Source of the DNA: a virus
Direction: 5' to 3' (one strand)
Virus record (IMG/VR): IMGVR_UViG_3300009177_000031
Location: 1-64,000 of that record
DNA length: 64,000 nt
Every line of letters begins with the position of its first letter. Positions within the stretch are counted from its first letter, which is position 1. Shown in pieces: positions 12,712-30,973 of the stretch. Under the pieces are notes generated by a model. It saw only the letters and a program-made list of their open reading frames with translations, was not told the origin of the DNA and searched no databases. The translations under genes and the position numbers were made by a program.

Positions 12712-14280
12712 ATGACGATGGATTTGCAAACGCTCCGTATCAACCGCACGCCTGTCAGCGAGAACCGCAAGTGTGAAGGTTGCGTGCACTACGACGGCAA
12801 CGCCGCTGCAAAGGGTGGCGCGTGCGAGGTTGGTCAATCGCCAGCGCTGTGCGGCAACGGTGGAGAGCCGAAGTACGGCTACGCTGCGCTCGCCGATCTG
12901 TCGCCTGACGAAGTCGACGATCTTGCAACGCCGCTCATCAACGGTCCGCAAGGAACGATGAACGAGCACGGCGAGATCGAGAAGACGATCACGATGAAGC
13001 GCGTGTGCCTCGGTGACGAGGATCTGACGATCGCGCAGCGCATCCACGGCGAGCAATCGAAGTACACGAAGAAGTCGTGGGGCTACGCCGATGGTCAGGT
13101 GAACGCGTTTGCCGGTGCCGAGCTGGCGCACGAGCGCACGGTGAACCCGGAGCATCCGATGATCGACGTCGCGAAGTCGCTGCACGACATGTACATGTCG
13201 CCGCGCAAGCAGCACAAGTACGGCGTGACGGACGTGCTCGCGTTCCTCCAATCGCGCGGCATGCCGGTGACGGATGACGAGATGGAGGTTTGCAAATCGC
13301 GCTTCGGTGCGACTCGTCAGGTTCCTGTCGGTCACGCGGAGAATCCGACGTTGCCGCAAGCTGCGGCTGGATTGCGCGCACACAACACCGCGACGCGAGC
13401 GCCTGGCGGTATGGGCTCGCAAACGCCGTCTGCACCGGTTGCTGCGAAACCTCGTCGATCTGGTTCGGCGACGCAGCAAATGCCGATCGCGAAGTCGATG
13501 CCGAACGTTCGCAAGATCGGTGGCGACAGCGACCCTTTTGATCGCAGCCGTCTGTCGAAGTCGACAGGCGGCGAAGGGTCGCGTGGTGGCAAGGTCATCG
13601 GTCACACCAAGAGCGGCAAGCCGGTGTACGAAGGCGTCGAGCACAAGAACTGGAGCCAGCACAACGATCACTTCAGGACGCCGGAAAACGAGCGCAAAGC
13701 GTCGGCAGAAGACGCGATGCAGGCTTCGCAAAAGGCGTACAGCAAGGCGTACGCGGCGCACAAGATGTCATCGCGCAGTCACTCGAAGAAGCACAAACCA
13801 GAGACGTGGGATCCGGCCGAGCATCACGCTGCGGCTGAAGCCTACGAGGAAGCGGCTGTACATCACGAGCATGCTTCGCATCACGCGAACCCGTCGCGTC
13901 CAGACACCGAAGGGCTTCGTCGACCTGGTGAGCCTGAGTATCTCTCGAAGGAGTGGCATCAGCGCGAAGCAGAGCATCGCAACATTCGCGCAGAGCATCA
14001 CCGGCTGAAAGCGGACATCGCGCAGCACCTACGCGACAAGCAGTATGGTCTCGCGCACGACACAGCCAAACAGCTCGCCGAACACCCTCAAGCTGGTGCT
14101 CACGCACTCGACAAGCTCGATCACGAGAAGATCCTCGAACACGTTGCGAAGAAGACGTCGAAGGTTCCGCACAACGAGATGGTTGCACGCGATGCGGAAC
14201 AAGAGGGCAAGCATGATGTAGCTGCAAAGCTGCGTCGTTTGCGGAAGTCCGAGACGCCAAACGTTCGCCGCATCGGCTGA
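12712..14280 (+). CDS. putative head-packaged multidomain protein (GSRGG tag, His-rich module)
   Basis: AAGGAG RBS; LSKS-TGGEGSRGGKVIGHTKSGKPVY; immediately upstream of the portal. Confidence 0.75.
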   Translation: MTMDLQTLRINRTPVSENRKCEGCVHYDGNAAAKGGACEVGQSPALCGNGGEPKYGYAALADLSPDEVDDLATPLINGPQGTMNEHGEIEKTITMKRVCLGDEDLTIAQRIHGEQSKYTKKSWGYADGQVNAFAGAELAHERTVNPEHPMIDVAKSLHDMYMSPRKQHKYGVTDVLAFLQSRGMPVTDDEMEVCKSRFGATRQVPVGHAENPTLPQAAAGLRAHNTATRAPGGMGSQTPSAPVAAKPRRSGSATQQMPIAKSMPNVRKIGGDSDPFDRSRLSKSTGGEGSRGGKVIGHTKSGKPVYEGVEHKNWSQHNDHFRTPENERKASAEDAMQASQKAYSKAYAAHKMSSRSHSKKHKPETWDPAEHHAAAEAYEEAAVHHEHASHHANPSRPDTEGLRRPGEPEYLSKEWHQREAEHRNIRAEHHRLKADIAQHLRDKQYGLAHDTAKQLAEHPQAGAHALDKLDHEKILEHVAKKTSKVPHNEMVARDAEQEGKHDVAAKLRRLRKSETPNVRRIG

Positions 14281-14291
14281 AGGAGTAGTCA

Positions 14292-16097
14292 ATGGCGCTT
14301 GTCGATCAGCACGGGCGAGAAGTCTCCGTCATGCCGGTGGATGCACCGGTATCGGAGCAAATCCAGAAGGCAGTCACAGCTGCAACGGAGGAGCTGTTCG
14401 ACAAGATGGATCGCGTGCTGTCGATGTCAGCACCACCGCCACCGAGCGCAAACGAGCCGAAGGGCTGGTACACCGATCCGTTTGCGCTTCTCGACTCGCT
14501 CGGCATGGGCTACCGCGCGAACCCAAGCCACGTGACGTACGAGACGCTTCGTCAAATGACGGAGCGCGACACGTTGCTTGGTAGCATCATCAACACGCGC
14601 ATCGCGCAGATCAGCACGTTCTGTCGCGAGCAAGAGAACAAGTACAGCGTCGGCAACCTGGTGCGTTTGAAGGGCGCCGATCGGCACAAGCGACGTCTGA
14701 CGAACGGTGAGAAGGATCGCAAGAAGAAGATCGAAGCCTACGTCGAGAACATGGGTGGCGAGCGCAACGTCACGCGCGACAAGTTTGGCAACGCGGTGAA
14801 GAAGCTCGTGCGCGACACGCTCTCGTACGATCAGGCGAACATCGAGAATCACTTCACGCGCGGTGGTGACCTGCACCAATCGCTCGTGCTCGACGCGACG
14901 ACGATTCGCATCGCCGATCAGACGAAGACGAACCCTCGCGGCATTCCGCTGAAGCCGTCCGACGAGAAGACGCACATCATGTACGCGCAGATCCTCAACG
15001 GAGAGATCGTGCGCGAGTTCACGCCTCGCGAGCTGGCGTTCCCAATTCGCAATCCGCGCTCGAACCTCAAGGTCGGTGGCTACGGCTTTCCAGAGCCGCA
15101 GCTCCTGATCCAAACCGTCACCGCCCACATTTGGGCTGAGGAGTGGAACCGCAAAGCGTTCTCGCAGGGCTCGACGATCAAGGGTGTCCTCAACATGCGA
15201 GGCAACATCGATCGTCAGAAGTACGACAACTTCAAGCGTCAGTGGACCACGCAGGTTGGTGGCATCACAAACGCGTGGAAGACGCCCATCATCAACAGCG
15301 ACGGCATCGACTTCGTTCCGATGCAGATGTCGAACACGGAGATGGGCTACCAGATGTGGATCGAGTATCTGGTCAAGATCGCGTGCGCCATCTACCAGAT
15401 GGACCCGACCGAGATCAACTTCGACCTGCGCGGTGGCAGTGGTACCGGTCAACAGCCGACGTTCGTCTCGTCAAACGAGGCGCAACAGAAGATGTCGCGC
15501 GACCGCGGTCTGCGCCCGCTGCTTCGCTTCTTCGAGGATCTGTTCAACCAGCACATCATCGATCGCATCGATCCTGACTTCGAGCTGGCGTTTGTCGGTC
15601 TCGACGCGAAGACGGAAGCGGAAGCGGTCGAGCTACGTCAGAAGCAAGGCCAAACGCACCTGACCATCAACGAGGTGCGCGCGCTCGAAGATCTGGATCC
15701 GATTCCTGGTGGCGACGTCATCATGAATCCGACGTACACCGGCTACCTGCTACAGCAACAGCAAATGCAAATGCAGGGTGGCGCTGGTGGCGGTGGTGGT
15801 GGAATGCCTGGCATGCCTGGTGGGCAGCAACAGCAGCAACCGCCAGAGCAACCGTACGCGAATCGGTTTGGACACGCTGGTTCGCCACCGACGGACGGTG
15901 CGAAGGCCGGCGCGAAGAACCTGCAATCGATGTCGCACAACAAGCCGCAGCAAGACGACGTGCACGACGAAGACGACGACATCCGCATCCTGCGGCGTGA
16001 CGATTGGTCATCGAGCGTTCACGCATCGGTGCGTGACAACGACCTGCGTAAGAGCGAGCGGAACGCGGTGGCGGACTTCTTCGAGATCGACCTGTAA
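14292..16097 (+). CDS. portal protein
   Basis: IINTRIAQI, RDTL.YDQ, IRNPR...GYG.PE, FSQG...KGVL, WK.P, TINEVR..EDL.PI.GGD; Twort/SPO1-like portal. Confidence 0.93.
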   Translation: MALVDQHGREVSVMPVDAPVSEQIQKAVTAATEELFDKMDRVLSMSAPPPPSANEPKGWYTDPFALLDSLGMGYRANPSHVTYETLRQMTERDTLLGSIINTRIAQISTFCREQENKYSVGNLVRLKGADRHKRRLTNGEKDRKKKIEAYVENMGGERNVTRDKFGNAVKKLVRDTLSYDQANIENHFTRGGDLHQSLVLDATTIRIADQTKTNPRGIPLKPSDEKTHIMYAQILNGEIVREFTPRELAFPIRNPRSNLKVGGYGFPEPQLLIQTVTAHIWAEEWNRKAFSQGSTIKGVLNMRGNIDRQKYDNFKRQWTTQVGGITNAWKTPIINSDGIDFVPMQMSNTEMGYQMWIEYLVKIACAIYQMDPTEINFDLRGGSGTGQQPTFVSSNEAQQKMSRDRGLRPLLRFFEDLFNQHIIDRIDPDFELAFVGLDAKTEAEAVELRQKQGQTHLTINEVRALEDLDPIPGGDVIMNPTYTGYLLQQQQMQMQGGAGGGGGGMPGMPGGQQQQQPPEQPYANRFGHAGSPPTDGAKAGAKNLQSMSHNKPQQDDVHDEDDDIRILRRDDWSSSVHASVRDNDLRKSERNAVADFFEIDL

Positions 16098-16101
16098 GGC
16101 G

Positions 16102-18633
16102 ATGCAGCTCATCTTCAAAGCGACGAACGTCAAGCATCCGGGTAGCCGCGGTGGGCAATTCTGGATCGACGACAAGGGGCAAGCTCGCTACGACGAGAAG
16201 CCGACGGAGCAGAAGCGTCCGCACAAGTACCTCGCAATCGTCACGCTGTCGGACGGCACCGAGAAGCGCATCGAGCCAAACGACGACGAGCTTGACGAAT
16301 ACGGTCAGGTGATCGGTGGTCAGGCGAAGATTCGCGAGATCATCAACCGCGCACTGTTCGGTGAGTACGGCTTCAAGCCAAACGGAACCTTCTGGCAGAA
16401 GAAGGGCATCCTCATCGAGTACAAGACGCGCACGACAACGCGCGGCAAGACGGAAGTCGACGCGATCCAGCGTCACCAAGGCTACACGTCGTTCGAGTTC
16501 CGTGATTCGTCCGTGTCGCGCGCGTACGGCGCAGAGCTTCCGAAGAAGATCACGCAGCACTACGTCGATCCGAAGGACGTCACGTCGAAGCACGAACCGC
16601 TTCCGTCGAAGGAGAAGATCGAGCTTCCTGAAGGCGCGACGTCGGATCAACCGCCGATCGAAGAGATGAGCATCCACACCGTGCCGAAGCGGTTGCCGAG
16701 CACGCTGACGGCGATTGGCGAGAAGCTGAAGGACAACGAGAACCCAATCGCAATCGCCGATGCGTACCTCGATGCGACGTTCCACGCGCGCAAGCCGAGT
16801 CAGGCGAAGACGGAAGCCGGACAGACCAAGGCGCGCGCAGAGCGCGAAGGTCAGTTCAACGAAGTCATCGGTCATCGCAAGATCGAGCGGCTACCGATTT
16901 GGGCAATCGCGAAGTACGACTCGCCAGCGCAATTGCAGCAAGAGCTGTCGCGCGATGGTGGACGTCCGCTCACGACGCTCATCACGCTCGGCGTTTGGGA
17001 TGAGAACAACAAGAGCAAGCGCGTTCGTGAACAGCTCATAGCGGAGTGGTCAGGCTTCTTGCGCCGCTGGTCGCAGCGCTTCGCGAGCGTGTACGCGAGC
17101 ACCGATTCGTACCGCAAGTTCGACAAGCTCGAAGGTGGGAGCAAGGCTGCGCGCGATTGGATGCACGATCGCCAGCGTGACCTGTTCAACGAAGGTGTCG
17201 CCGTGTTGCTGGACGAGGCGAACAAGTACCAGGCGAACGACGAGCCGGCCGGACCCGACAGCCGATTCGATCTGAAGGTCACGAACGCGATCAAGAACCA
17301 CCTGGAGAAGAAGGCGAAGCAGGCCGCAGTCGAGGTGCACGGCGCGACGTACTCCGAGGATTTGGCCGAAGAGGAAGCGTTCAGCCCACCGCGCATGCTC
17401 ACGCCGCGCGAGCAATTCGAGCTGCGTCACTTCGAGCCGCAAGCGATCGAGATTCTCAATTGGGCGACGTCAACGCTCAAACCAGAGCAACGTGCGGCGT
17501 TCAAGTCGCGTTTGTGGATCGACGACTACGAGAAGCATCCTGACGCATCAGAGGAGCGCGTTTGGAACGAGCGACGTGCCGAGCGTATGCAGAAGCACGG
17601 TGAGTCGAACCTGCATTGGGGACGTCCGTGGATTCGCTCTGGCGACAGCGGCACCGTGCAGGCGATGAGCGACATGCTTGGTGACATCGAAGTGAAGCTG
17701 CGCGGTGGTAAAGGCATCGCGAAGCTTCGCACGCTGAAGCCGCAGCATCAGATGTACTACCTGGAGAAGTGGTTCAACGAAGCGCAGGAGCACGTTCTCA
17801 ATCAGCTGAAGACGAAGGGCGGCGGTCTTTCGTCTGAAGGCAGGGTAGTCGAGCGCTGGCTGCGTTTGGAAGAGAAGCTCGCGCACGTGAACACGAAGGA
17901 GATCACGGACCGCGTGCAGCACAAGACGGTGCAAATGCCGCTGAAGCCGGCTGCGCCGATCGTCGAGCACAATCGCGCTCACGAGAACCCGTCCGTCACG
18001 TTCTTCAAGCAGCCTGGAACGAACCGCGAGCTGGCCGAGCGTCTCGGCATCCTCGGCGATCTCGATCTGCCCATCGCGCTGAAGAACGTGAACCTTCCGA
18101 AGCAATACGAAGAGAAGCTGAAGCGCGTCGAGGACTACCATCGGCGTTTGCAATCGAACCTGAAGCACGTTGGCGATCTTGGTGTGCTTCGCGACGAAGC
18201 GCATGCGGCGATGGAGCGTCACCGCAACATGGGCTCGTGGTACCACTCGCCGAGCGGTTCGATGGAGTGGCATGAGGACAACGGCGTGGTTGCTCTACAC
18301 GAAGCGTTGCTGAAGCTGCACAAGACGAAGGGCGAAGACCAAGCCGCTGTCACCGCGTTTACGAACGCCGCAAACGCGCTCGGCAAAGAGCATCCGATGG
18401 TGCAGGACTACGCGCGACGTTTGGCGACGCTCGGCATGGATCCACCGACGAGCACTGATCTCGCAGCGTGGAAGGCTCGCTCACATTCGGCGTATCGCGA
18501 GCACGCGAACCGGTTGCACCTGATCGAGTTCGCCCAAGAGCAACGCAACGCGAAGAAGTCGATCCGCGATTTGCGTGATGCCTTCAAGAAGTGCATCGGT
18601 GCGTACGACGATCTCAGGAAGGCGTTCGTGTAA
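16102..18633 (+). CDS. putative head-packaged protein with sigma-70-like domain
   Basis: N-terminal LIFKA...PGSRGGQFW tag; region-2-like EQLIAEW...RDLFNEGVAVLL.A.KY...RF....AIKN; region-4-like L.PEQR...RL. Confidence 0.65.
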   Translation: MQLIFKATNVKHPGSRGGQFWIDDKGQARYDEKPTEQKRPHKYLAIVTLSDGTEKRIEPNDDELDEYGQVIGGQAKIREIINRALFGEYGFKPNGTFWQKKGILIEYKTRTTTRGKTEVDAIQRHQGYTSFEFRDSSVSRAYGAELPKKITQHYVDPKDVTSKHEPLPSKEKIELPEGATSDQPPIEEMSIHTVPKRLPSTLTAIGEKLKDNENPIAIADAYLDATFHARKPSQAKTEAGQTKARAEREGQFNEVIGHRKIERLPIWAIAKYDSPAQLQQELSRDGGRPLTTLITLGVWDENNKSKRVREQLIAEWSGFLRRWSQRFASVYASTDSYRKFDKLEGGSKAARDWMHDRQRDLFNEGVAVLLDEANKYQANDEPAGPDSRFDLKVTNAIKNHLEKKAKQAAVEVHGATYSEDLAEEEAFSPPRMLTPREQFELRHFEPQAIEILNWATSTLKPEQRAAFKSRLWIDDYEKHPDASEERVWNERRAERMQKHGESNLHWGRPWIRSGDSGTVQAMSDMLGDIEVKLRGGKGIAKLRTLKPQHQMYYLEKWFNEAQEHVLNQLKTKGGGLSSEGRVVERWLRLEEKLAHVNTKEITDRVQHKTVQMPLKPAAPIVEHNRAHENPSVTFFKQPGTNRELAERLGILGDLDLPIALKNVNLPKQYEEKLKRVEDYHRRLQSNLKHVGDLGVLRDEAHAAMERHRNMGSWYHSPSGSMEWHEDNGVVALHEALLKLHKTKGEDQAAVTAFTNAANALGKEHPMVQDYARRLATLGMDPPTSTDLAAWKARSHSAYREHANRLHLIEFAQEQRNAKKSIRDLRDAFKKCIGAYDDLRKAFV

Positions 18634-20858
18634 TGCAGGTCATCCTCAGCGGCCACACGGTGCGCGCCGATTTGGAAGCAACGCCAATCGGCGCATTCGA
18701 CGTCATTCGTGACGACGTGCGCATGATCTCCACGGTGAAGCCGGTCGAGCGCATCTTCATCGAGCGCACCGAGACCGGCTATCGCGGCGTGCTGTACTCG
18801 AACGAGAAGCCGTTCCTGTTCGCGCTGAACGGCAACGGTTTCACCGCGAAGCCGATTGCGCAGGATGCGACGGTGTTCGCGTACTGCGACCGTTTGCAGG
18901 ACGAGGAGCGCGACCTGACGATGCGCCTTGATCAAGAGCGCGCAGACGCGGACATGGTGGATGTGAATCGTGTGATGTTCGAGCGCGACTCGAACCTGAC
19001 CGATGATGCAGCTGTGGCTCGCGAAGACGCGTCGCCTGCGACGCTGAAGGTGTGGGGACCGTCAGTCGACATCGCCGATCCAATCGAGCGCGTTCCTGGT
19101 GCGTATCGCAAGATGCGCCAGGGTGGATCGTCACTCGAAGGCAAGCGCAACAACGGCGTTTGCGGTGGCGGCATCGTGATGAAGGATGGGAAGGTGCTTC
19201 TCGTCAAGCCGCGTGGTGGATGGGGTGGCTACGATTGGACGTTCCCGAAGGGCTACCCGGCCGCAATCGACAACAACCATTTGGAGCAAACGGCGGTGCG
19301 CGAGGTGTGCGAGGAGACCGGCTACCGCGTCTTCGCCAATCGCTTCATCGGTCGCTTCTCGCACAACGATGGTGGTGTTTGCGACTACTTCTATTGCGAT
19401 GTCGACAACTCGAAGGAAGCCGGCACGCCGGATCCGCACGAGACGTCGGCGATCAAGTGGTGTTCGCTGGTCGAAGCGTTGGAGCTTCTCAACGATGACG
19501 TCGACGTGAAGATCCTGGCGCAAGCGAACAACCTGCTACCGCAATTGATCATCAAGTCGGAGGGCCACACCGGAACGATGGTGGCGCTGCATCTTCCGAC
19601 GGACATCGCAAAGAAGATCGCACTGAAGGGCGGTGAGGACCCTGCAAAGCTGCACATCACGCTCGCGTACCTCGGCAAAGGACTCAGCGAGCAACAGAAG
19701 AAAACCGCCGCTTCTGTGGTGCGCAGGTTTGCAGAGTCGATCGTCGATGGCTTGAAGGTGACGCTCGGCGGTGTCGGTCGCTTCAGTGCGAGCGGCACGA
19801 CGGAGGGGCGTGACGTTATCTACCTGTCGGTCGATTCGCCATCGCTCACGCGCGTTCGTCCAGAGCTGGCGAACATGCTGCGCGAGGCAGGCTTCGACTT
19901 CGACGTGCAGCACGGCTTCATTCCGCACGTGACGCTCGCGTACGTCGACAAGGACGAGAAGACGCCGATCAATCGCGTGGAGCCGATTGAGATCAAGTTC
20001 GACACGATCTCACTCACGATCGCGAACAAGCAGATGACGTTTCCGCTGAAGCTGTCGAAGCAGAACCAAGAGTTCTACGACGTGGGCCGGCGCAACTACG
20101 AAGCGCTGATGAAGTGGCGCGTCGATAAGCTGGAGAAGATGTACGGCGTCAGGTTGCCGATCAAGCCGCAGGAGTCGGCGACGTTCGTGCGTTTGGACAA
20201 GAGCCTCGATTACGAGCCAGTGATGGTGAAGGCGTTGCCGCGCATGAACAGTGACCAACGCGACGCGAAGAACAAGAAAGTCGGCGTGAAGCCGCCTGGC
20301 GCAGCGAAGAAGCAAGCCGGTGCGACCGGCAAGACGCGCTACACGTATCCGGCCGAGCAAGCAAACGCGAAGCCTGGACAGCCGCAACAGCCTGGTGGGC
20401 AACCGCAGCAACCTGGTGCGCCTGGACAGCCGCAGCAAGGTCAGGATCAGGTGCTTCCGCATCCTGACACGCCGCCGCCGCAACCCGAGCAAGCTCCGAT
20501 TGCAGCCGAGCATCCTGACAAACCGCCGCAGAACGATCCGCGTGGTCCCAATCCGCAAGAGCCGCAGCAACCGAAGCACACGATCAACATCGGCGAGCTG
20601 TGCGCAGCGCTCGGTGTTCAGCGCTCGGTGCTTCAGCAAATCGTTGCGCGCATGCAAAAGAACTTCGGCGCTGACGCGCGGAAGAAGTTCGTGTCGTTCA
20701 TGAGTGTGCAGCTGAAGCAGTTTGCGGACGAGCACGGTTTGGAAGGCGACTACTTCGGTTTGCTGTTCGATGTGCTCACCGGAAAGGTGCAGGAAGGTCA
20801 GCCTGCATCGCAACAGCAACCGCAACCGCAGGGAGGAAGCCGTGGCGCTAAAGCGTGA
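18633..20858 (+). CDS. multidomain protein: Nudix hydrolase + 2H phosphoesterase + Q/P-rich tail
   Basis: Nudix box WTFPKG...TAVREVCEETG; two HxT motifs (LHITLAY, PHVTLAY). Confidence 0.85.
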   Translation: MQVILSGHTVRADLEATPIGAFDVIRDDVRMISTVKPVERIFIERTETGYRGVLYSNEKPFLFALNGNGFTAKPIAQDATVFAYCDRLQDEERDLTMRLDQERADADMVDVNRVMFERDSNLTDDAAVAREDASPATLKVWGPSVDIADPIERVPGAYRKMRQGGSSLEGKRNNGVCGGGIVMKDGKVLLVKPRGGWGGYDWTFPKGYPAAIDNNHLEQTAVREVCEETGYRVFANRFIGRFSHNDGGVCDYFYCDVDNSKEAGTPDPHETSAIKWCSLVEALELLNDDVDVKILAQANNLLPQLIIKSEGHTGTMVALHLPTDIAKKIALKGGEDPAKLHITLAYLGKGLSEQQKKTAASVVRRFAESIVDGLKVTLGGVGRFSASGTTEGRDVIYLSVDSPSLTRVRPELANMLREAGFDFDVQHGFIPHVTLAYVDKDEKTPINRVEPIEIKFDTISLTIANKQMTFPLKLSKQNQEFYDVGRRNYEALMKWRVDKLEKMYGVRLPIKPQESATFVRLDKSLDYEPVMVKALPRMNSDQRDAKNKKVGVKPPGAAKKQAGATGKTRYTYPAEQANAKPGQPQQPGGQPQQPGAPGQPQQGQDQVLPHPDTPPPQPEQAPIAAEHPDKPPQNDPRGPNPQEPQQPKHTINIGELCAALGVQRSVLQQIVARMQKNFGADARKKFVSFMSVQLKQFADEHGLEGDYFGLLFDVLTGKVQEGQPASQQQPQPQGGSRGAKA

Positions 20859-23208: not shown

Positions 23209-23420
23209 TGTCGGTTGCTGCACTCTCTGAACGAGCTGTGCAGCAACCGATGGCTGCACGAAGCAAGCAGAGCATCGATTACAAACGCGGCGTTTGTCCG
23301 TGTTGTTCGCAACCGATGTTGGTGATGGCAAGCCAGCCTGAAGCACCGTGCGTCGATTGCTACGTAGAAGAGAAGCCGAAGCTTGCAATCGGAACGCAGC
23401 CCATTCCGGTTGACCGCTAG
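23208..23420 (+). CDS. small Zn-ribbon protein
   Basis: TAATG coupling; CPCC...CVDC. Confidence 0.6.
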   Translation: MSVAALSERAVQQPMAARSKQSIDYKRGVCPCCSQPMLVMASQPEAPCVDCYVEEKPKLAIGTQPIPVDR

Positions 23421-23434
23421 CTCGTGAGGAGCAG

Positions 23435-26400
23435 ATGAACGACGACATCGATTTTGACGCGTTGTATGAAGGTCTCAACGTCGACACCGACTTGATGATC
23501 AAAGCGACGCTTCGCGTGCCTGCGCGTCCGATGAAGAACGCAGTCGCGCAATCGCTGTCGTTGGACCTGAAGGCTTTGTACAAGGCGCGCGCAGAAGCGT
23601 TGATGGCGGACATCACCGACGTGATGAACGAAGAGGAGCCGATTGCAAAGGCCGATCTGATCTTCGCGAATGGGCGCGTTTTGTTCAAAGCTTTGACAGG
23701 GCAACCGAAGCCACCACCTTCGGCACCGAAGCTTGAAACGCATCAGCAACCAGGTCACGCAAACGCACCGAAGACGCCGAGCGCTGGCGCAGGTGCGAAG
23801 TCGACGATGCCTGGTGGACAGCGTCGTCTCACAGCGTCCGGCTACATCCACGTCGAGACTCCTGGCTCGCGTGGTGGAAAGTTCTGGCGCGACGAGAAAG
23901 GCAACGTGCGCTACGGCGACAAGCCGAGCGGCACCTTCCAAGTGGAAGCGCCACCGCATGATGTCGTGGAGCACTACAGGAAGTATTACGCGCCGCAGCC
24001 GTTTGCAGCGCACAACCAGATGGACATGCACGAAGCTCTCATGCAGAGCGAAGTGCTCACGGAAGCCGATCACGGCTTCATGGACTTCTGGCACGAGAAC
24101 TACGATGAGGTTCTGAGCCTCATCAGTGGTGGCAAGCTCACGCGCAAGGACGTCGAGAAGGCCGGGGGTTTGCAGAACTGTTCGTTCCAGATCAACGGAC
24201 GTCCGTGCAGCGTGGGTGAGGCGATCGAGGAGTTCTTCAAGGCGAACGTCGGTGCGTTTGTCGGTGACGAAACGTACGGCGACATTGAGACGCCGGAAGA
24301 CATCCTCGAAGCGGTGCGCGGCTTGATGGACCGCTACCGCAAAGCGCTGCACGAAGATCCGAAGGTGCAAGCGCTCGCGCAAGCCGCAGCGGAGAAGCGC
24401 GAAGCCGAGCGCAACGCGTTCTACCTGACGTGCGAGCACACCGCGGAGGAGTTCTCGCCGCTCGCCGGCGATCTTGTCACGAAGGAGGACTTCGAGGATC
24501 TGACGTTCAAAGCGACCGCTGCAATGGCGCAGATGGGTCTCATCGAGCGCGGTGGCAAAGGCAGCGTTGCTCAGCGCCGCATGCGCGGTGCAATCGTTCC
24601 GAAGTCGAGCATGCTGTTGCAGGACAAGCGCAACATGGGTTCGCTTTGGAAGGACGATCAGCTCGAACGTCTCAGCGCGCCGCAGCTGATGGCGGTGCAC
24701 ATTGCAGTCGATGCGCAGGAGTCGTTCTCGAAGGACAACACCTACGAGTACGAGCCTGGTGCGCCAAACGCGAACCGCGACCGCGTGTTCGATCTCATTT
24801 GCAGCAAGCTCGGCGTCGACCCGGACGATCAGGTCGCGAAGAACACGCTGAAGCGCAAGCTGGAGAAGACGACGGAAGCGACGCTGCGCGCGATGACGAA
24901 CTACAACACCGGACAGGATCCGATGTTCGCGCTCGCGATGACGAAGCGCATCTGTGACATCTACAAGAACGCCGATTGGCTAGAAGACCACAAGAAGAAG
25001 GTCGCCGAGGAGCAATCGCGCATTCAGGAGATCCTCGCTGCGCAAGAGGACACGTCGTTCGAGCCTCCACCGTCGATGGTAAACGGCGTTTGGAACGGCA
25101 AGACGCTGAAGGATGCGAACAAGCCAGAGAAGGGCGTTTGGGCTCCGTTCGAGTACCAGAAGAAGTACATCAACTGGATGCTCAAGGCGAAGCGCGGTGT
25201 GATTGCAGCCGATGCCGGCATGGGCAAGACGCCGATCGTGATCGCGTTCCGTGAGCTGCTTGCATCGCAGGGCAAAGACGTTCCTGCCATTTGCTTCCTA
25301 CCACCGTCGTTGATGGAGCAGTGGCCTGCGGCGATCCAGAAGTTCGCGCCAGAGAACGCCGACAAGATCCTCAACCTCAGTGGTCTCTCGTTGGAGGAGC
25401 GCAAGGTCGCTTTGCAAAGCGACATGGCGAAGAAGGCTCGCTACATCTTCATCAGCACCGGCACGCTCACCGGTGACGTGCCGGATCCGAACTCGACGGA
25501 AGACGAGAACGATGGCACCGGTGGTTCTGACCACGAGATGGTCGAGATCCTGAAGAACCTCGAAGGCGCGGTGTTCATCGACGAAGCGCACCAAGGCGGT
25601 TACAAGAAAGCCGGCAACACGCGCCACGAGATTGCAAAGGCGGTGATGGAGGGTCGCGAGTACGCGTTCGGCATGACGGCTACGCCGATGCCAAACGATC
25701 CGATGGACGTCTATCACCTCGCGAACCTGTTTGCGCCTGGCAGCGTTGGTGACGCCGAGCTGTGGGCTGGTCGCACCGCTGGTGTGGCGTGGAACGAAGA
25801 GGAAGGTCGTTATGAGGTGTCGAACCCGGAGCACCTTGCAGAGCTGAACCAGCGCCTCAAGCCGTTCGTGTTCTACAAGAGCGTCAACGATCCAGACGTC
25901 GTGAAGGACATGGGCAAGGGTCTTCCGCAGAAGACCGGTGTGCACGAAGACTCAGCGATGCACGAGGGTGAGGGCGATCTGAATCTGTCAGGTCACTCGA
26001 ACGCGCAGAACGGTTTGTCGCAGCACGACTACTTCAAAGAGGGTGGTGTCATTGACACCATGATCGAGCTGCGCATCGCGCGTTTGGTGCGCGAGCGAGC
26101 GGAGAAGATTGCAAACGGCGAAGTGAATCCTTCGACCGGTGAGCCGTACAAGGCGTACCACCCCAAGTTCCTTCAGCTGATGGCTGGCGGCATGAAGATC
26201 ATGCTGCAACGGCAAGCGTCGATCTCGCCAGCGCTCATCGATCACACGTATCGCAAGTCCGATGGTGGCGTTGCGCACTCGCCGAAGATCAAGGCGCTGT
26301 GCGATGACATCGTCGCGCACTTCTCAAACGGTGGTCAGGGTGGTGACGACGCGAAGCCGCTCGTCGTGTTCTCATCGTTCCCTGGCAAAGCGTTTCCGCT

Positions 26401-27937
26401 CGTGCGCAAAGCGCTCGCCGAACGCGGTGTGGATCCGTCGCTCATCGAGACGATTGCAGGCGACGTCGCTCCGACGGAGCGCGGCTACATGCAGGACAAG
26501 CTGAACAAGGGCCACGCGAAGGTGCTCCTTGTCGGCACGATGTCAGGTGGCGCCGGTCTGAACCTTCAGGAAGCGGCGAACAAGACGCTGTTCCTCGATG
26601 AGCCGTGGAACCCGGCTGCAAAGCGTCAGGCGATTGGTCGCGTTTGGCGCACCGGACAGAACAACGTCGTGCACGAGAAGACGTACCGTTCGGTTGGTAC
26701 GTACGACTCGGTGGTGGAGCAGAAGATCGCAGGCAAGCAAGCGATGGTCGCTGCGCTTCTCGGAAAGGACATGCCGACGGAGGCATCGTTCAAGCCGGAC
26801 ACGTCGATCAAGGAGCTGCTTGGTCGCGTGAAGGGCACCGACTACACCGAGGATCAGATCAAAGCGATCATGGAGAACTCGAAGAACTACGATTTGGCTT
26901 CGAGTGAGCACAAGCAAGCCGAACAGCTTTTGCAATCGATGCACGATGAGGATTGGAAGGAGAAGGCCGGTGGTCAGGGCTTCGGTGGTGGCGTTTCCGC
27001 AACGCTGACCGACAAGGACTTCGAGCCGAACAAGGAAGCGCAGAAGACGCTCAAGAACAAGGGCGCGCACAAACTCACCGAAGCGTTCGATGAGAAGGAG
27101 TTCCGCGGCAAGTGGGAGATGGATCGCGATAAGCGCCGCTCGAAGCAGAACTACGAGATGGCGAACCTGATGGCTGACGTGTACAGCCAGCAAGGGAACA
27201 AAGAGAAAGCTGACGAGTACAAGCGTCGCGCTGACGAGCTTGCCGAGAAGTACCCTGAACTCGGTGGTGCAAAGGACGGTGGTGCGAAGAAGAAGGGCAA
27301 GGACGAGAAGCCGAAGGCCGAGAAGAAGGGCGACGAGAAGAAGCCTGCGAAGGGTGGCGACAAGAAGCAATCGAAGGAAGGTGGCGAGAGCGAGCAAACG
27401 AAACCGCCACCGCGCGCGACTGCAACGGTTGCTGACGCCGAGCACGAGCTGAAGCAAAAGGCGAAGGCGCAGGACGCGCACACCAAGACGCAAACGGAGA
27501 AGGTGAAGCAGCGCAAGCCGCAAGAGACGACGAACAAGCTCGGTGGCAATCCTGACGAGCAAGAGGCGCCGGTCAAGCCGGCGACCTTGAAGCAGCCGGT
27601 GGTGAAGCGCAACGAAGCGCTCGGTGTCGACTTCCACTCGAAGGACAATCCGTTCCCGGAGAACGGACGCAAGGTGAAGGGCACCGACGTCTCGAACGCG
27701 GAAGCGAACTACGTACTCGATGTGCTGCACAAAGAGAAGAAGCTGAAGTCGTGGGACGAGTTCATCACGACGCACATCAAGCCGGTTTGGGACGAAGAGG
27801 ACGGTCGCAATCCGTTCTCGATGAAGGCTGCGCACGAGTACGTCGGCAAGATCGTCGACGCGATCTCGAATCAAGGCTTGATGACGCTCAACGAGCCGAT
27901 GAAGGCTGCGAAGAAGCAGACCAAGAAGGAGAAGTAG
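23435..27937 (+). CDS. 1500-aa SNF2-family helicase/translocase with GSRGG tag (DarB-like virion protein)
   Basis: YQ, ADAGMGKT, FIDEAH, MTATP, SPK, GLNLQEA, WNPA...QAIGRVWRTGQ. Confidence 0.9.
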   Translation: MNDDIDFDALYEGLNVDTDLMIKATLRVPARPMKNAVAQSLSLDLKALYKARAEALMADITDVMNEEEPIAKADLIFANGRVLFKALTGQPKPPPSAPKLETHQQPGHANAPKTPSAGAGAKSTMPGGQRRLTASGYIHVETPGSRGGKFWRDEKGNVRYGDKPSGTFQVEAPPHDVVEHYRKYYAPQPFAAHNQMDMHEALMQSEVLTEADHGFMDFWHENYDEVLSLISGGKLTRKDVEKAGGLQNCSFQINGRPCSVGEAIEEFFKANVGAFVGDETYGDIETPEDILEAVRGLMDRYRKALHEDPKVQALAQAAAEKREAERNAFYLTCEHTAEEFSPLAGDLVTKEDFEDLTFKATAAMAQMGLIERGGKGSVAQRRMRGAIVPKSSMLLQDKRNMGSLWKDDQLERLSAPQLMAVHIAVDAQESFSKDNTYEYEPGAPNANRDRVFDLICSKLGVDPDDQVAKNTLKRKLEKTTEATLRAMTNYNTGQDPMFALAMTKRICDIYKNADWLEDHKKKVAEEQSRIQEILAAQEDTSFEPPPSMVNGVWNGKTLKDANKPEKGVWAPFEYQKKYINWMLKAKRGVIAADAGMGKTPIVIAFRELLASQGKDVPAICFLPPSLMEQWPAAIQKFAPENADKILNLSGLSLEERKVALQSDMAKKARYIFISTGTLTGDVPDPNSTEDENDGTGGSDHEMVEILKNLEGAVFIDEAHQGGYKKAGNTRHEIAKAVMEGREYAFGMTATPMPNDPMDVYHLANLFAPGSVGDAELWAGRTAGVAWNEEEGRYEVSNPEHLAELNQRLKPFVFYKSVNDPDVVKDMGKGLPQKTGVHEDSAMHEGEGDLNLSGHSNAQNGLSQHDYFKEGGVIDTMIELRIARLVRERAEKIANGEVNPSTGEPYKAYHPKFLQLMAGGMKIMLQRQASISPALIDHTYRKSDGGVAHSPKIKALCDDIVAHFSNGGQGGDDAKPLVVFSSFPGKAFPLVRKALAERGVDPSLIETIAGDVAPTERGYMQDKLNKGHAKVLLVGTMSGGAGLNLQEAANKTLFLDEPWNPAAKRQAIGRVWRTGQNNVVHEKTYRSVGTYDSVVEQKIAGKQAMVAALLGKDMPTEASFKPDTSIKELLGRVKGTDYTEDQIKAIMENSKNYDLASSEHKQAEQLLQSMHDEDWKEKAGGQGFGGGVSATLTDKDFEPNKEAQKTLKNKGAHKLTEAFDEKEFRGKWEMDRDKRRSKQNYEMANLMADVYSQQGNKEKADEYKRRADELAEKYPELGGAKDGGAKKKGKDEKPKAEKKGDEKKPAKGGDKKQSKEGGESEQTKPPPRATATVADAEHELKQKAKAQDAHTKTQTEKVKQRKPQETTNKLGGNPDEQEAPVKPATLKQPVVKRNEALGVDFHSKDNPFPENGRKVKGTDVSNAEANYVLDVLHKEKKLKSWDEFITTHIKPVWDEEDGRNPFSMKAAHEYVGKIVDAISNQGLMTLNEPMKAAKKQTKKEK

Positions 27938-27940
27938 GCG

Positions 27941-28405
27941 ATGCCAAATCGCGAGAAGTCGAACCACGTCGTGTTCCGCACCGTCAATCGCGGTGACGGA
28001 AAGAAGGGCATCGAGGCGCACACGCCTGAGAAGGTGCTTCCGATCCACGACAAGAAGGAACTCGAAGCGCAGCTGAAGCACTACGCGAAGTTTCTTCTAT
28101 CGCTGACGACAGGAAGTAACGTCGCTGCGCGTCGGAAGTATGTCGAGCTGATTCGTCCGGCGCTGCGCTACTACTGCAAGAAGTTCAACGTGCAGGCACC
28201 GAAGTGGCTCGCAAACGACGACTACTACACCAAGACGATGGACACCGCGACGAAGCAGCAGATGTTCGGCATGCGCCCGCTTCGCATCGGGGAGTTTCAG
28301 AAGCTGAAGCCGGTCGAAGGTGTCGAGAGCGTTTCGTATCCAGGCAAGGAGCCGGATGCGGAGGAGCAAGGAGCAAAGGCAAATGGGCAAGCCCCTCAGC
28401 GATAA
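27941..28405 (+). CDS. hypothetical head-region protein
   Basis: Packed between the SNF2 and MuF-like genes. Confidence 0.7.
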   Translation: MPNREKSNHVVFRTVNRGDGKKGIEAHTPEKVLPIHDKKELEAQLKHYAKFLLSLTTGSNVAARRKYVELIRPALRYYCKKFNVQAPKWLANDDYYTKTMDTATKQQMFGMRPLRIGEFQKLKPVEGVESVSYPGKEPDAEEQGAKANGQAPQR

Positions 28406-29336
28406 GCAACGAGAGAAGATCAGCAAGCTGATTGCTGACCATCACCTCGCGTTTGCCGTCGAGGTGCTTGGGCCTGACGCGATTCCGCGCGCTGAGCTTC
28501 AGCGTTTGCAGCGTGAAGGCATCCTGAAGCAGCACGAAGTCGAGCACGCGCAGGTTGCGATTCCAGCTGCGCACATGCTTGGCAAGCAAGCAGCGTCAAA
28601 CGCGCAGCTCGCGCGCATGCCGCCAGAGCAGTTCTGGCAGTTCATCGAGCACGCACCGCCGCAGTTCAGCAAGCACGATCTCGACGCGATGAACGCGGCG
28701 AAAGCTGTGGTTGGTCGTTTGATCGTCAACCTCGGTGTCGGTTTGCTCAACGAGTTCGAGAGTGCCAGCCATGAAGAAGCAGCAAAGCTTCGTCAGGAAG
28801 CGTTGGGGGTTGTACAACACGAGGTTGCGCTCGGCATCGCACGACGTTCTGCGAAGGAGAAAATCCAGCGTCGCTTGCGAGACAAGCTCGGCGAGTCGGA
28901 ACGCAATTGGGCGCTTGTGGTACAAACCGAACTCCACAACGCGCAGGAGTACGGCAAGGCGCTCGGACTCGGCGCTGACGGGCGAGACCCGATCGTCTAC
29001 AAGCGGCCACGTCCTGACGCTTGTCGTTTCTGCAAGCTCCTGTACCTCGTCGATGGTGTACGTCCTCGTCTCTTCCGTCTCTCAGTGCTCGTGAAGAACG
29101 GCACGAACTACGGAAAGCGTGCGCGACGTCCTTCGTTCCGTGGTGCAGGCGCAACGGAATGGAAGGCGACCGTCGGCTGCGTGCATCCTGGTTGTCAGTG
29201 CGAGATGCACCAGATGCCGGAAGGCATGACGTTCGACAAGCAGGGGAAGCTCGTTGCGTCTGTGCGCAAGAGCATCGAGCCTGACGTTCTCACCGCCGAT
29301 CTTCGGAAGCTCATCGGTCACCGGTGCGTCGCATGA
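28383..29336 (+). CDS. head morphogenesis protein (MuF/SPP1 gp7-like)
   Basis: QTELHNA...G, DACRFC and VHPGCQC motifs; lies between portal and protease. Confidence 0.8.
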   Translation: MGKPLSDKQREKISKLIADHHLAFAVEVLGPDAIPRAELQRLQREGILKQHEVEHAQVAIPAAHMLGKQAASNAQLARMPPEQFWQFIEHAPPQFSKHDLDAMNAAKAVVGRLIVNLGVGLLNEFESASHEEAAKLRQEALGVVQHEVALGIARRSAKEKIQRRLRDKLGESERNWALVVQTELHNAQEYGKALGLGADGRDPIVYKRPRPDACRFCKLLYLVDGVRPRLFRLSVLVKNGTNYGKRARRPSFRGAGATEWKATVGCVHPGCQCEMHQMPEGMTFDKQGKLVASVRKSIEPDVLTADLRKLIGHRCVA

Positions 29337-30202
29337 CTCAGCTCGAAACCATCGTGAAGCGGATGAAGCCGGTCTCGATCAAGATGATCGCGGAAGGCAA
29401 CGTCGGCGCACGTCTGGTGACGTATCCGAACGGCGCGCAGGTCGTGATGAAGATCTGTTCGTCTGTAACGACGAAGAACCAGCGCACGACGCAACGCGGT
29501 CTGCCCACCGAGACAGAACCGAAGCGCGAAGTCGCGTTCTATCGGCTGTGCAAGTTGCTCGGTTGGGACATCGTGCCGGAAACCGTTTTGGGCGAATTCG
29601 CCGGTTTCCCTGCGTCGTTTCAGCAATACATGACGGCGGCGAAGCTCTACGACGTGGAGCCGCGCCTGCGGAACCCGGGCAAGAACAGGGTGGCGTGGCA
29701 GATCGCGCTGCGCGAAACCTTGCGAGACAAGGTTCCATTTGAAGACACGCTGCGCCTGACAGTGCTAGATTTCCTGGCAGGGTCGCGCGATCGTCATGCT
29801 GCTAATTATGGTGTTCGTTTGGATGTGTCTGCCAACAAAGCTCGTTGGCGACTCATCGGTTGGGACAACGGTTGCTCGTTTGGTTTGACGCAAGCGTTGT
29901 ACAAATGCGTCGCTCACAAGTGGGTCTTCCGTTACGCGTTCGATCTGTCGACTGTTTGGGATGACCTTCGACGCATTCGACGTTCAGAACTCGCTTCTGC
30001 ACTGAGTGGCCTGATCGACGACGAAGCTATCGACCACGTTTGGCATCGAGTTCAGTTTGTACTCACGTTTCCACATCGCATGCCGTGGAAGACGCTTTCG
30101 CAAGGGCATGACGACGGTGACTCCTTTCCGTCGTACGCAGAATGGTTCAAACCGATGCTGGGCACCAAACCCTTCTACATCTTGCAAACGCAGGCGCTGT
30201 AG
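29333..30202 (+). CDS. PI3/PI4-kinase/HipA-like protein kinase
   Basis: VMK, REVAFY.L..LLG...VPET, catalytic DRHAAN, DNGCSF; ATGA coupling. Confidence 0.8.
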   Translation: MTQLETIVKRMKPVSIKMIAEGNVGARLVTYPNGAQVVMKICSSVTTKNQRTTQRGLPTETEPKREVAFYRLCKLLGWDIVPETVLGEFAGFPASFQQYMTAAKLYDVEPRLRNPGKNRVAWQIALRETLRDKVPFEDTLRLTVLDFLAGSRDRHAANYGVRLDVSANKARWRLIGWDNGCSFGLTQALYKCVAHKWVFRYAFDLSTVWDDLRRIRRSELASALSGLIDDEAIDHVWHRVQFVLTFPHRMPWKTLSQGHDDGDSFPSYAEWFKPMLGTKPFYILQTQAL

Positions 30203-30226
30203 AGGTACTCCTAGGAGCCGGGTTCA

Positions 30227-30973
30227 ATGCGTGACAACGACCTTCTAGACGGCAAAGACGACTTCTTGATTTGGACGCCGAGCTGCGTCGAGATCATCAT
30301 GAAGGCTGGTGTCGACATCGAGCGCACGCGTCCAATCGGTGGAACGTGTTCGACCGAGCGTCTCGATCGCCAGGACGAGAAGGTGTTCGCGAAGGGACTC
30401 GACTTCAACGAGTTCGTGAACCACGGCTACTTCAACGACAACCACAAGCAGAACACGGCTGACATCCTCGGCTATCCGAACATGGCCGAGCTACGCAAGG
30501 GTCGTTGGTGGACCGAAGGCAACTTGCTTCTCGATTGGGAGCCTGCAAATCGTGTTTGGGCGCTCGCGAAAGCGCTCTCAAAGAGCACTGCGAAACGCAG
30601 GCTCGGCTTCTCGATCGAAGGCAAGGTAACGGAGCGCGGTTACGACAACCGCATCACGAAGGCGATCATTCGCCACGTCGCAATCACCAATTCGCCGGTG
30701 AACACCGATTGCACGTGGGACATTCTCGCGAAGGCGTTTGGCTCGATGGAGGAGCTGGAAGGTGCTTCGTTGCGTCGCGCGCTGAGCGCGGGTGCTTCGT
30801 CGCCGGGTTCCAGTGGAGGCGCAGCGCTCGCAGGTGGGCGTGTGGAGCGCAAGCCGATCGAGCTGACGTTCGACGAAGCGGTGAAGGTTCTTAAAGCGCA
30901 TCGTCCGCAGTACGCGTGGGGAACGTGCGAGCGGCTCGCTCGTGTGATTTTCAAACAAGAACGGAGGAACTGA
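30227..30973 (+). CDS. prohead (capsid maturation) protease
   Basis: G.CST..LDRQDE....GLDF, YFNDNH, LGFSIEG (catalytic Ser), VAIT..PVN. Confidence 0.9.
   Translation: MRDNDLLDGKDDFLIWTPSCVEIIMKAGVDIERTRPIGGTCSTERLDRQDEKVFAKGLDFNEFVNHGYFNDNHKQNTADILGYPNMAELRKGRWWTEGNLLLDWEPANRVWALAKALSKSTAKRRLGFSIEGKVTERGYDNRITKAIIRHVAITNSPVNTDCTWDILAKAFGSMEELEGASLRRALSAGASSPGSSGGAALAGGRVERKPIELTFDEAVKVLKAHRPQYAWGTCERLARVIFKQERRN

Follow-up and report, generated by a model that had tools for sequence, protein, structure and literature searches.

Why would a phage place an S-adenosylmethionine (SAM) lyase, a Nudix hydrolase, a 2H phosphoesterase and an SNF2-type ATPase among the genes that build its head? The question is raised by the window analysed here, the whole 64,000-nucleotide stretch of viral DNA at positions 1 to 64,000 of IMG/VR virus record IMGVR_UViG_3300009177_000031 (88,309 bp, estimated completeness 75%, about 60% G+C). 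An earlier note on this DNA had described about 14 kb of large multidomain genes between the portal and the prohead protease, with one more ahead of the portal, and this arrangement was recovered: 14.1 kb separate the end of the portal gene from the start of the protease gene, and the gene for protein A lies upstream of the portal. The explanation that we favour, and hold to be fairly probable, is that the products of these genes, hereafter the cargo, are head-internal polyproteins that are cut by the prohead protease, loaded into the capsid and delivered with the DNA. Incorporation into the head, cleavage, ejection and action against restriction, BREX (bacteriophage exclusion) or nucleotide signalling are steps that we infer from the sequence. 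The features concerned are listed below, with predicted cuts marked by an arrow.

12712-14280, + strand: protein A, 522 amino acids (aa), with an N-terminal Cys-rich domain (1-192), a linker, a type-2 GSRGG unit and a His-rich helical tail
13576-13629, + strand: head of the GSRGG unit in A (type 2)
14292-16097, + strand: portal (PF04860, E 2.6e-21; phrog_12)
16102-18633, + strand: protein C, 843 aa, beginning with the hexapeptide MQLIFK↓A and then a type-1 GSRGG motif; the centre (about residues 300-600) is possibly sigma-70-like
16141-16203, + strand: GSRGG motif in C (type 1)
18633-20858, + strand: protein D, 741 aa, with Nudix (181-294), K308↓S, 2H (339-450), K523↓S, K533↓A and a Pro/Gln-rich tail
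20842-23208, + strand: protein E, 788 aa from the GTG at 20842, or 781 aa from the ATG at 20863
20887-20949, + strand: GSRGG motif 1 of E (type 1)
21922-21975, + strand: head of GSRGG unit 2 of E (type 2), with LIK↓G directly ahead
23435-27937, + strand: protein F, 1500 aa, with an SNF2-type ATPase core (about 542-1229) and a type-1 GSRGG motif at residue 144
23864-23926, + strand: GSRGG motif in F (type 1)
27941-28405, + strand: protein G, 154 aa, kept in relatives
28383-29336, + strand: protein H, 317 aa, a conserved head-module protein with C..C ... HPxCxC
29333-30202, + strand: protein I, 289 aa, a candidate PI3K/PI4K/HipA-like kinase
30227-30973, + strand: prohead (head maturation) protease (phrog_1028, E 1.4e-44), itself rich in predicted cut sites
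31814-32833, + strand: scaffold-like protein, acidic and Ser/Asp/Glu-rich, assigned by its position between protease and capsid protein and by 12 predicted sites against 2.2 expected
32875-34275, + strand: major capsid protein (MCP; phrog_752), predicted maturation cut EIQK↓ALSAG, K30↓A31

Throughout 12.7-34.3 kb, every gene is on the + strand, in tight packing and with several overlaps of stop and start codons, in the order A, portal, C, D, E, F, G, H, I, protease, two small open reading frames (ORFs), scaffold-like protein and MCP. No promoter-like site was found on the + strand within 11.5-31.4 kb, and a single, weak terminator-like site; this scarcity and the tight gene coupling were counted as support for an operon. 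These genes form the head-assembly operon of a myovirus that has not been cultivated; its portal, protease and capsid protein are of the SPO1/Herelleviridae type. The MCP shares 35-39% identity with its counterparts in Bacillus Herelleviridae and matches 9vel (E 1.5e-76 over residues 12-464), 5lii (E 1.6e-24) and phrog_752 (E 1.7e-87); the closest cultured portals, those of the SPO1 group of Herelleviridae, are 40-42% identical. The protease belongs to phrog_1028 and had no match among PDB sequences at E<=1. Tail sheath and baseplate genes are encoded downstream of the MCP and therefore identify a myovirus. Megablast of the region against GenBank phages gave no match at the DNA level. In CP-51, a cultured Bacillus phage of the Herelleviridae, the portal, protease, scaffold and MCP genes are adjacent, and the portal-protease gap is 62 bases, compared with the 14.1 kb of cargo here. 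This difference is best explained by a variable cargo block inserted between portal and protease, with one more cargo gene ahead of the portal.

The predicted cut site is anchored in the capsid protein. The resemblance that the earlier note had seen between sites in the cargo and the MCP N-terminus (EIQK-ALSAG) proved well founded, as EEIQK↓ALSAGYQ of the MCP aligns with EDVVK↓SFQTGYG (K24↓S25) of phage 812. The 812 chain in PDB entry 9row has 439 residues and that in 5lii 463, an offset of 24, so the deposited mature protein begins straight after that Lys; the corresponding cut in the phage studied here is predicted from the alignment. SPO1 MCP (Gp6.1, 9vel) has LNK↓ALEAG at the same aligned position, and all 23 MCP homologues encoded in loci that bear the GSRGG unit (see below) keep hydrophobic-x-K↓A there. 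The capsid protein of Listeria phage A511 is reportedly also cut between Lys and Ser. The available parts of PMC12886913 and PMC5923470 contain nothing on the cut sites of Herelleviridae proteases. Further sites of the same form are found in the portal, SEQIQK↓AV at K26 and DLRK↓S near the C-terminus. Both are kept in the closest relative (G001, portal 69% identical), and the K26 site is kept in six of eight aligned portal homologues. Residues ~500-540 of the portal (15790-15900), near its C-terminus, form a Gln/Gly/Pro-rich low-complexity stretch.

Matches to [LIVMF]-x-K-[ASG], hereafter h-x-K-[ASG], were counted against the expectation from composition-preserving shuffles. The gene set consisted of + strand ORFs with G+C at third codon positions (GC3) of at least 0.68; greedy longest-ORF calls had yielded many wrong-strand ORFs at 60% G+C. 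The comparison of cargo (pooled A, C, D, E and F) with 29 tail and non-structural control genes had been set beforehand in the earlier note, and it came out in favour of the prediction: the cargo contains 40 matches against 19.3 expected (2.07-fold, with none of 500 shuffles as high), whereas the controls contain 37 against 40.9 (0.90-fold). The protease (8 against 0.94) and the scaffold-like protein (12 against 2.2) are the most strongly enriched, at 6.4-fold when pooled (20 against 3.1). Among the cargo proteins, the excess is seen in E (15 against 4.1), A (5 against 1.69), F (13 against 7.65) and D (5 against 2.7), and is retained when E is left out (25 against 15.0, p 0.011). None of 11 look-alike motifs, with Arg, Glu, Asp or Gln before the cut (P1), shifted, reversed or with other residue classes after it (P1'), came near these ratios. 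Only two were nominally significant. One was h-x-E-[ASG] in the cargo (25 against 16.7, 1.5-fold, p 0.034), a motif that shows no enrichment in the pooled protease and scaffold (3 against 2.8); the other, in that same pool, was K-[ASG] with the hydrophobic position dropped (26 against 13.8, 1.9-fold). CP-51 has the same signature in its protease (9 against 1.44), its annotated scaffold (13 against 1.37) and its MCP (LNK↓ALSAGH), with no matches in its sheath and tail genes. Across 62 related IMG/VR loci, enrichment is 5.3-fold in the protease, 3.65-fold in protease-to-MCP ORFs and 2.54-fold in unit-bearing ORFs (2.35-fold with the units cut out).

The sites are also conserved. In G001, 36 of 44 aligned sites still match the motif, compared with 223 of 383 other Lys that are kept, and some have changed within residue classes (for example, VAKA to LSKS and IIKS to LIKG); the retained sites include seven of eight in the protease and all four that could be aligned in D. 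Across an alignment of 12 E-family members, Lys at predicted sites is retained in 96 of 131 cases and Lys elsewhere in 226 of 540. An AlphaFold2 (AF2) model of E, built from 12 sequences with a mean predicted local distance difference test (pLDDT) score of 63, has confident folded parts at 13-209, 294-334 and 357-537. None of the 15 sites is inside these three domains, compared with 40 of 74 other Lys. Low-confidence segments (pLDDT below 50) contain or directly adjoin 13 of the 15 sites, compared with 27 of the 74 other Lys (Fisher p 4e-4). The claim that domain boundaries coincide with sites is borne out here, as it is in D, where K308 separates Nudix from 2H and K523 and K533 follow 2H.

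Several features of the proteases themselves bear on the site. The CP-51 protease (L077 7366-8127) contains VEK↓ALSAGY, a near copy of the maturation site of its own MCP, and the protease of the present phage has LRR↓ALSAG, with Arg at P1, at the matching place. These copies hint at self-cleavage and at tolerance of Arg at P1. Many protease homologues (L020 1271-4567, L030 5367-7037 and others) have 500-1100 aa and 14-23 cut-site matches each, and by their sequence look like protease-scaffold fusions.

The second line of evidence is the GSRGG element, which the earlier note had reported in four proteins. Six-frame translation of the whole record contains five copies, all in frame and all in those four (A, C, F and two in E), plus one GSRGA at the end of D. 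Type 1, PGSRGGKFWxDxKGxxxYGxKP, is found in C, F and the N-terminal part of E, and type 2, GSRGGK-[VI]-x-x-HTKSGKPVY, in A and the middle of E. The element is larger than first noticed: it is the start of a unit of ~60 residues that belongs to a large unannotated family and is nearly always located behind a predicted cut site. The consensus is hydrophobic-x-K-[GAS], 0-3 residues, usually an E next, GS[RK]GG-x-[VI]-[IV]-GHT-[KR]-SGK-[PA]-[IV]-Y, 5-15 variable residues, and then H-x-x-[FW]-[ST]-x-x-DH-x-DA-x-x-x-H. In A, for instance, the site and the type-2 unit read LSK↓STGGE-GSRGGKVIGHTKSGKPVY. A profile of eight copies detected 317 longer proteins at E<=0.01, nearly all with type 2 and with one to six pentapeptides each by pattern match, or up to 11 profile-matched stretches. 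A 40-sequence profile searched against 1.84 billion cluster representatives retrieved 2,078 at E<=1e-3, 1,191 at 1e-10 and 113 at 1e-30. No Pfam model, LPD families included, matches the unit even at E<=10, and a literature search with its motif strings found no phage paper.

Site and unit are tightly coupled. Within nine residues upstream of the unit, a cut-site match is present for 105 of 113 copies in the IMG/VR loci, compared with 6.2% of random windows in the same ORFs, and the site Lys is 2-6 residues ahead of the first Gly of the unit; among 120 listed proteins, 194 of 233 copies have an upstream site. In both AF2 models, those of E and of a two-unit protein (pLDDT 58.9, too uncertain for a fold search), the site and GSRGG are disordered and are followed by a beta hairpin and then helices. 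In E, the hairpin (360-371) and the helices (372-505) have pLDDT 82-97 and include a confident four-helix bundle, which in a Foldseek search matched generic helical bundles only. The fragments between units are basic and His-rich (median 140 aa, isoelectric point (pI) 9.0, 7.8% His), and the unit head has pI 10.2.

The genomic context ties the unit to the head. A homologue of this phage's portal, protease or MCP is encoded within 10 kb in 42 of the 62 loci that were found through the unit, and the remaining 20 include several that are short duplicates or represent a second site on a contig with a head homologue. By kind, the 62 loci include 28 with a portal, 24 with a protease, 23 with an MCP and 22 with a homologue of protein H. 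Furthermore, the GSRGG pentapeptide is present in 4 of 19 protease homologues (L020 twice, L026, L038) and a GSHGG variant in L063. Two of these sequences, L026 and L063, were read for the full unit, and L026 has a canonical one after the protease domain, directly behind KIEK↓AGE. Because the prohead protease works inside the prohead, no other sequence evidence points as directly to a head-internal location of the unit as this fusion does. Other unit-bearing proteins combine it with SAM lyase, Nudix, SNF2, Zeta toxin, LPD1, DUF6321, DUF6496, ferritin, PAPS reductase plus methyltransferase, and inteins. In the genomes of 185,579 species (GTDB), the unit was found at three loci, all on contigs of Bacteroidota metagenome-assembled genomes, two of them of about 89-109 kb; these provide no host clue for a phage of 60% G+C.

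The cargo proteins themselves contain the enzymes that prompted the question, and several of the domain assignments in the earlier note (Nudix, 2H, SAM lyase and SNF2) stand. In E, the family model PF23780 scores 31.2 bits against a cut-off of 28, and a Foldseek search with the AF2 model returned the T3 SAM lyase (8bb1_E) at rank 1, with probability 1.00 and a template modelling (TM) score of 0.56 on the target; the predicted SAM lyase is thus confirmed by family and by modelled fold. E has no PHROG match. Its more likely start is the GTG at 20842 (788 aa), which has a GGAGG Shine-Dalgarno sequence ahead and agrees with the database gene call. From the N-terminus, E comprises a short propeptide ending in DLMK↓A, the type-1 motif, the SAM-lyase domain, a linker rich in predicted cut sites, a small helical domain, the type-2 unit with its four-helix bundle and a site-dense C-terminal half.

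D combines a Nudix domain (PF00293, 50.1 bits against a cut-off of 21.1), in which the Nudix box REUxEExGU reads REVCEETGY, with a 2H/LigT domain (PF13563, 43 bits against 27) that carries the H-x-T/S motifs HITL and HVTL. The NCBIfam 2',3'-cyclic phosphodiesterase model matches at E 2e-10, below its cut-off. D was not filed as Acb1, for which PF23474 scores 17.1 bits against a cut-off of 27. Two of the matches in D, K206 and K349, are inside domains and are probably structural rather than cut sites. The 2H region (residues 298-484) also matches phrog_18402, an 861-position family annotated as head maturation protease (E 2.5e-13), a hint that certain catalogued phages fuse 2H domains to their head proteases. 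Residues ~560-650 of D form a long Pro/Gln-rich stretch. The C-terminus of D, GGSRGAKA (20835-20858), is degenerate and GSRGG-like; it ends 4 bases before the ATG of E and overlaps the likely GTG start.

F has an SNF2 core (PF00176, SNF2-rel_dom, 56.2 bits; Helicase_C PF00271, 34.4 bits; ResIII as well), matches phrog_62 at E 1.6e-50 and has four sites in its N-terminal region (K23, K50, K72, K85). The tail of F (residues ~1230-1500; 27120-27937) is very Lys-rich and has zero h-x-K-[ASG] matches, as if the motif were avoided.

Two of the earlier assignments are leads only. Residues 300-600 of C score 0.92-0.94 to Sigma70 clusters in a language-model search, and the ten best named clusters are all Sigma70; Pfam models of sigma-70 regions 2 and 4 do not match C at E<=10, no PDB profile matches better than E 1.6, and no short homologues of residues 290-600 were found. 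The sigma-70-like domain is thus a language-model lead only. Likewise, the PI3K/HipA-like kinase identity of I is only a sequence lead, with TIGR03843 (SCO1664/PI3K-like) at E 1.1e-8 and 34.8 bits, far under the cut-off of 172, and HipA_C at E 0.24 and 11.5 bits against a cut-off of 30.5; I is conserved in G001, G002 and G003. The ChaB-like domain listed with these was not found in the cargo, where the nearest match is DUF7218 at E 0.008. Nor did the MuF-like label for H survive: its HPxCxC motif resembles MuF, and Phage_Mu_F matches none of the 17 members in an alignment of H and its homologues at E<=0.01. One member of the H family is fused to InPase (PF18823), a polyvalent-type domain, and two have intein/Hint matches; these homologues were assigned by over-length (618, 576 and 996 aa; L028 9891-11744, L052 3902-5629, L070 4175-7162). 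A has no match in Pfam, PHROG or NCBIfam, its N-terminal domain alone has none in Pfam, and G has none in the same three collections. Pfam models for MuF, methylase, LPD and peptidase domains match none of A to I.

Comparison with related loci shows what varies. In G001, A consists of residues 1-192 only, lacking 193-522, with the boundary at K195 of A; E starts at the equivalent of residue 215 and so lacks residues 1-214, that is, the first GSRGG motif and the SAM lyase, with the boundary at K213/K220 of E; and an extra 121-aa gene follows the portal. A second relative (G002) is complete, with 118.7 kb and a protease 74% identical, and keeps the backbone of the A N-terminal domain, portal, C, D, the core of E, F, G, H, I and protease. 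In G002, the unit of A is a separate gene, C has an extra 380-aa module behind another type-1 motif, and E, at only 436 aa, lacks both the SAM lyase and the helix bundle. The extra modules of both relatives have no Pfam match. The N-terminal domain of A adjoins the portal in relatives as well. Nine more distant loci that encode both portal and protease have gaps of 3.3-13 kb with 1-12 ORFs between them, and an H-like gene is present in seven of the nine. Nudix is the commonest recognisable domain, in 6 of 56 portal-to-protease ORFs of relatives. Modules thus appear, from these alignments, to be gained and lost at cut-site positions.

We propose the following scenario. The cargo would be made late, along with the head proteins, and built into the prohead, where the prohead protease would cut it after hydrophobic-x-Lys and before Ala, Ser or Gly. 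The same protease would trim the MCP at K30↓A31 and probably the N-terminus of the portal, and would shred the scaffold and itself. The cuts fall in predicted disordered linkers, so that folded pieces would be set free: SAM lyase, Nudix hydrolase, 2H phosphoesterase, SNF2 ATPase, a possible sigma-like domain and the basic, His/Lys-rich GSRGG units. As the unit begins 2-6 residues past the site, it would come to stand at the new N-terminus of its fragment, and it may hold fragments in the head by binding DNA or the head interior. Enzymes and unit-capped basic fragments would then remain associated with the DNA and be ejected together with it when the next cell is infected. Short leaders ending at a predicted site are present in C (MQLIFK↓A, with K6 followed by Ala or Ser in six of six family members), E (DLMK↓A) and F (LMIK↓A, kept in G001), and the targeting element could be either the leader or the unit.

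A number of observations weigh against this scenario. C has 2 sites against 2.9 expected, and G, H and I together 1 against 2.9, so the idea of a protease-cut polyprotein, which motif enrichment, linker position and conservation otherwise support, best fits E, A, D and the N-terminus of F. In F, 6 of 13 matches are within the SNF2 core, and a match to the motif therefore often cannot mark a cut. In its C-terminal half, E has sites at the density of a scaffold, and this half could be degraded and lost rather than delivered. The modest pLDDT of both AF2 models means that the apparent disorder in part reflects thin alignments. Among the related loci, all other ORFs are enriched 1.39-fold, although they are not a clean control because those loci are head neighbourhoods. 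The closest cultured Herelleviridae lack the cargo block, and tblastn of a three-unit protein against GenBank phages gave no match at 1e-3, with the 40-aa unit giving three chance-level rows at E 5 only; this negative is weak, since low-complexity filtering by BLAST could have masked the Gly-rich segment.

The density of sites in E and in the multi-unit proteins is scaffold-like, and this suggests a first alternative, in which the unit proteins and the site-dense parts of E would be extra scaffold or core that is digested and leaves the head before DNA packaging, while the enzyme domains act in the producing cell or go undelivered. The protease homologues point the same way, in that they carry the unit (L026), GSHGG (L063) or GSRGG (L020, L038) as if it were scaffold-like sequence, and many are protease-scaffold fusions of 500-600 aa. 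We nevertheless regard this alternative as unlikely. The folded domains of E, of ~20 kDa and up, are free of sites in the model and would survive digestion, too large to escape; this size argument draws on what is generally known of T4 internal proteins. Moreover, effector-type enzymes that are made late make little sense unless they are carried to the next host.

Another possibility, quite improbable in our view, is that the cargo proteins are ordinary cytoplasmic enzymes encoded in a head operon and that the excess of h-x-K-[ASG] reflects linker composition or helix periodicity. The lack of excess in C, G, H and I, the matches inside folded domains of D and F and the 1.39-fold background of the related loci would all fit. 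Against this reading stand the 11 look-alike motifs, all of which fall short (the best in the cargo reaching 1.5-fold), the controls at 0.90-fold, the sites that shun folded domains and are kept through class-preserving changes, the site ahead of 105 of 113 unit copies and the L026 protease fused to a full unit, with three more carrying GSRGG. Finally, we give little credence to the idea that the cargo is packaged and processed and yet serves the head itself, through DNA condensation, pressure control or capsid stabilisation: the basic, His/Lys-rich fragments and the ferritin-type partners would suit such a role, but partners such as SAM lyase, SNF2, Nudix, 2H and Zeta toxin typically act as effectors in conflicts, an argument that the accessible part of PMC5512222 makes for polyvalent proteins as well.

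Beyond the favoured scenario of protease-cut, head-delivered cargo, we raise, as a tentative and on present evidence doubtful extension, that the GSRGG unit is a general protease-gated module for capsid loading and delivery in a large uncultivated phage lineage. The module would run from a cleavable linker (h-x-K↓G-G-E) through GSRGG and a beta hairpin of basic character to a His-rich bundle of helices, and any enzyme placed beside it would be recruited to the prohead, cut free, kept with the DNA and injected. If this were true, pre-made anti-defence and takeover enzymes, such as SAM lyase and perhaps a sigma factor, could be swapped as plug-ins and act before any phage gene is read.

Head-packaged delivery of effectors has several precedents. 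T4 packages the internal proteins IPI-III and Alt, whose capsid targeting sequence is cut by gp21; the T4 protease cuts after Glu (L/I-x-E), and the cut motif of giant phages is A/G/S-x-E. The short N-terminal leaders of C, E and F that end at a predicted prohead-protease site, and the combination of basic internal proteins with enzymes that would be delivered with the DNA, are reminiscent of T4, whereas the protease here is of another family and would cut after Lys, the predicted substrates are multidomain polyproteins with many internal sites, and the unit would stay on the fragment instead of being removed. Phage P1 packages the antirestriction proteins DarA, DarB and Hdf in its head, with incorporation through an ordered Dar pathway. 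Large helicase-type antirestriction cargo in the head would be common to both, and the helicase C domain of F matches phrog_10089, annotated as DarB-like antirestriction, at E 8.2e-9; F differs in having no methylase domain and in belonging to another head lineage. With the Herelleviridae (SPO1, 812/K, A511, CP-51), this phage shares homologous MCP, portal and protease families, the same Lys-specific site, and a site-rich protease and scaffold; the cargo block, the GSRGG unit, which was not found in GenBank phages, and the 60% G+C set it apart.

Closest in concept are the polyvalent proteins of phages and conjugative elements (Iyer, Burroughs, Anand, de Souza, Aravind 2017, PMC5512222), which, in the part of that paper accessible to us, are predicted to be packaged and injected and are described as large proteins with unrelated conflict domains strung together (SNF2 ATPases and 2H among them), encoded with head genes. 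Several cargo proteins likewise combine at least two unrelated domains, with Nudix and 2H in D, SAM lyase, unit and more in E, and the type-1 motif and SNF2 in F, and LPD1 co-occurs with the GSRGG unit in two proteins from the searches. The signature companions of polyvalent proteins (MuF, the SNF2-methylase dyad, LPD and an embedded peptidase) gave no match in A to I, LPD1 being present only in other unit proteins, and processing there relies on embedded peptidase domains (same part of PMC5512222), whereas here prohead-protease sites would be used. In giant phages (SPN3US and the phiKZ group), the accessible parts of PMC5694885, PMC7411985 and PMC10052503 describe ejection proteins processed by the prohead protease, with many head-internal proteins cut and entering the cell, transcription machinery included (compare the possible sigma-like domain of C); these phages belong to an unrelated lineage with much larger genomes, and those parts report no repeated tag unit. 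The statement in the earlier note that no such system had been described was therefore too strong, polyvalent proteins and the T4 and giant-phage ejection proteins being of the same kind. Head-packaged effector delivery as such is already known. What appears to be new is the lineage, with its Herelleviridae-like head operon and variable cargo, the GSRGG unit and the way it is coupled to the site, the Lys-specific grammar within the cargo, and the particular set of cargo, an embedded SAM lyase included.

If the proposal is correct, environmental myoviruses of a new group, apparently a large one, would join the phages that deliver head-packaged effectors, and the sequence grammar of cut site plus unit would allow cargo to be predicted, with no more than the sequence, in thousands of metagenomic proteins. 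SAM lyases have so far been known as early-expressed stand-alone proteins; here, such enzymes could arrive ready-made. The unit could serve as a tool for loading foreign proteins into capsids, and the Lys-specific signature makes the substrates of Herelleviridae-type proteases easy to recognise, also in Staphylococcus and Listeria phages used for therapy.

The head block is preceded by a gene for a ParB-like protein (phrog_723, E 9.6e-14) at 10932-11765. A 97-aa ORF at 11974-12267, directly upstream of A, matches no family; its three cut-site matches, where 0.4 are expected (p 0.003), make it a further candidate for a substrate inside the head. The tetrapeptide DLRK occurs five times in the real + strand frames of the genome, and four of these occurrences are 3-14 residues ahead of the stop codons of head-module genes, at 12241, 16041, 18610 and 29298, that is, in the 97-aa ORF, the portal, C and H. 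A ends in RLRK↓SETPNVRRIG. Only the portal copy of DLRK is conserved in G001. DLRK could mark a point of C-terminal trimming or act as a signal common to these proteins.

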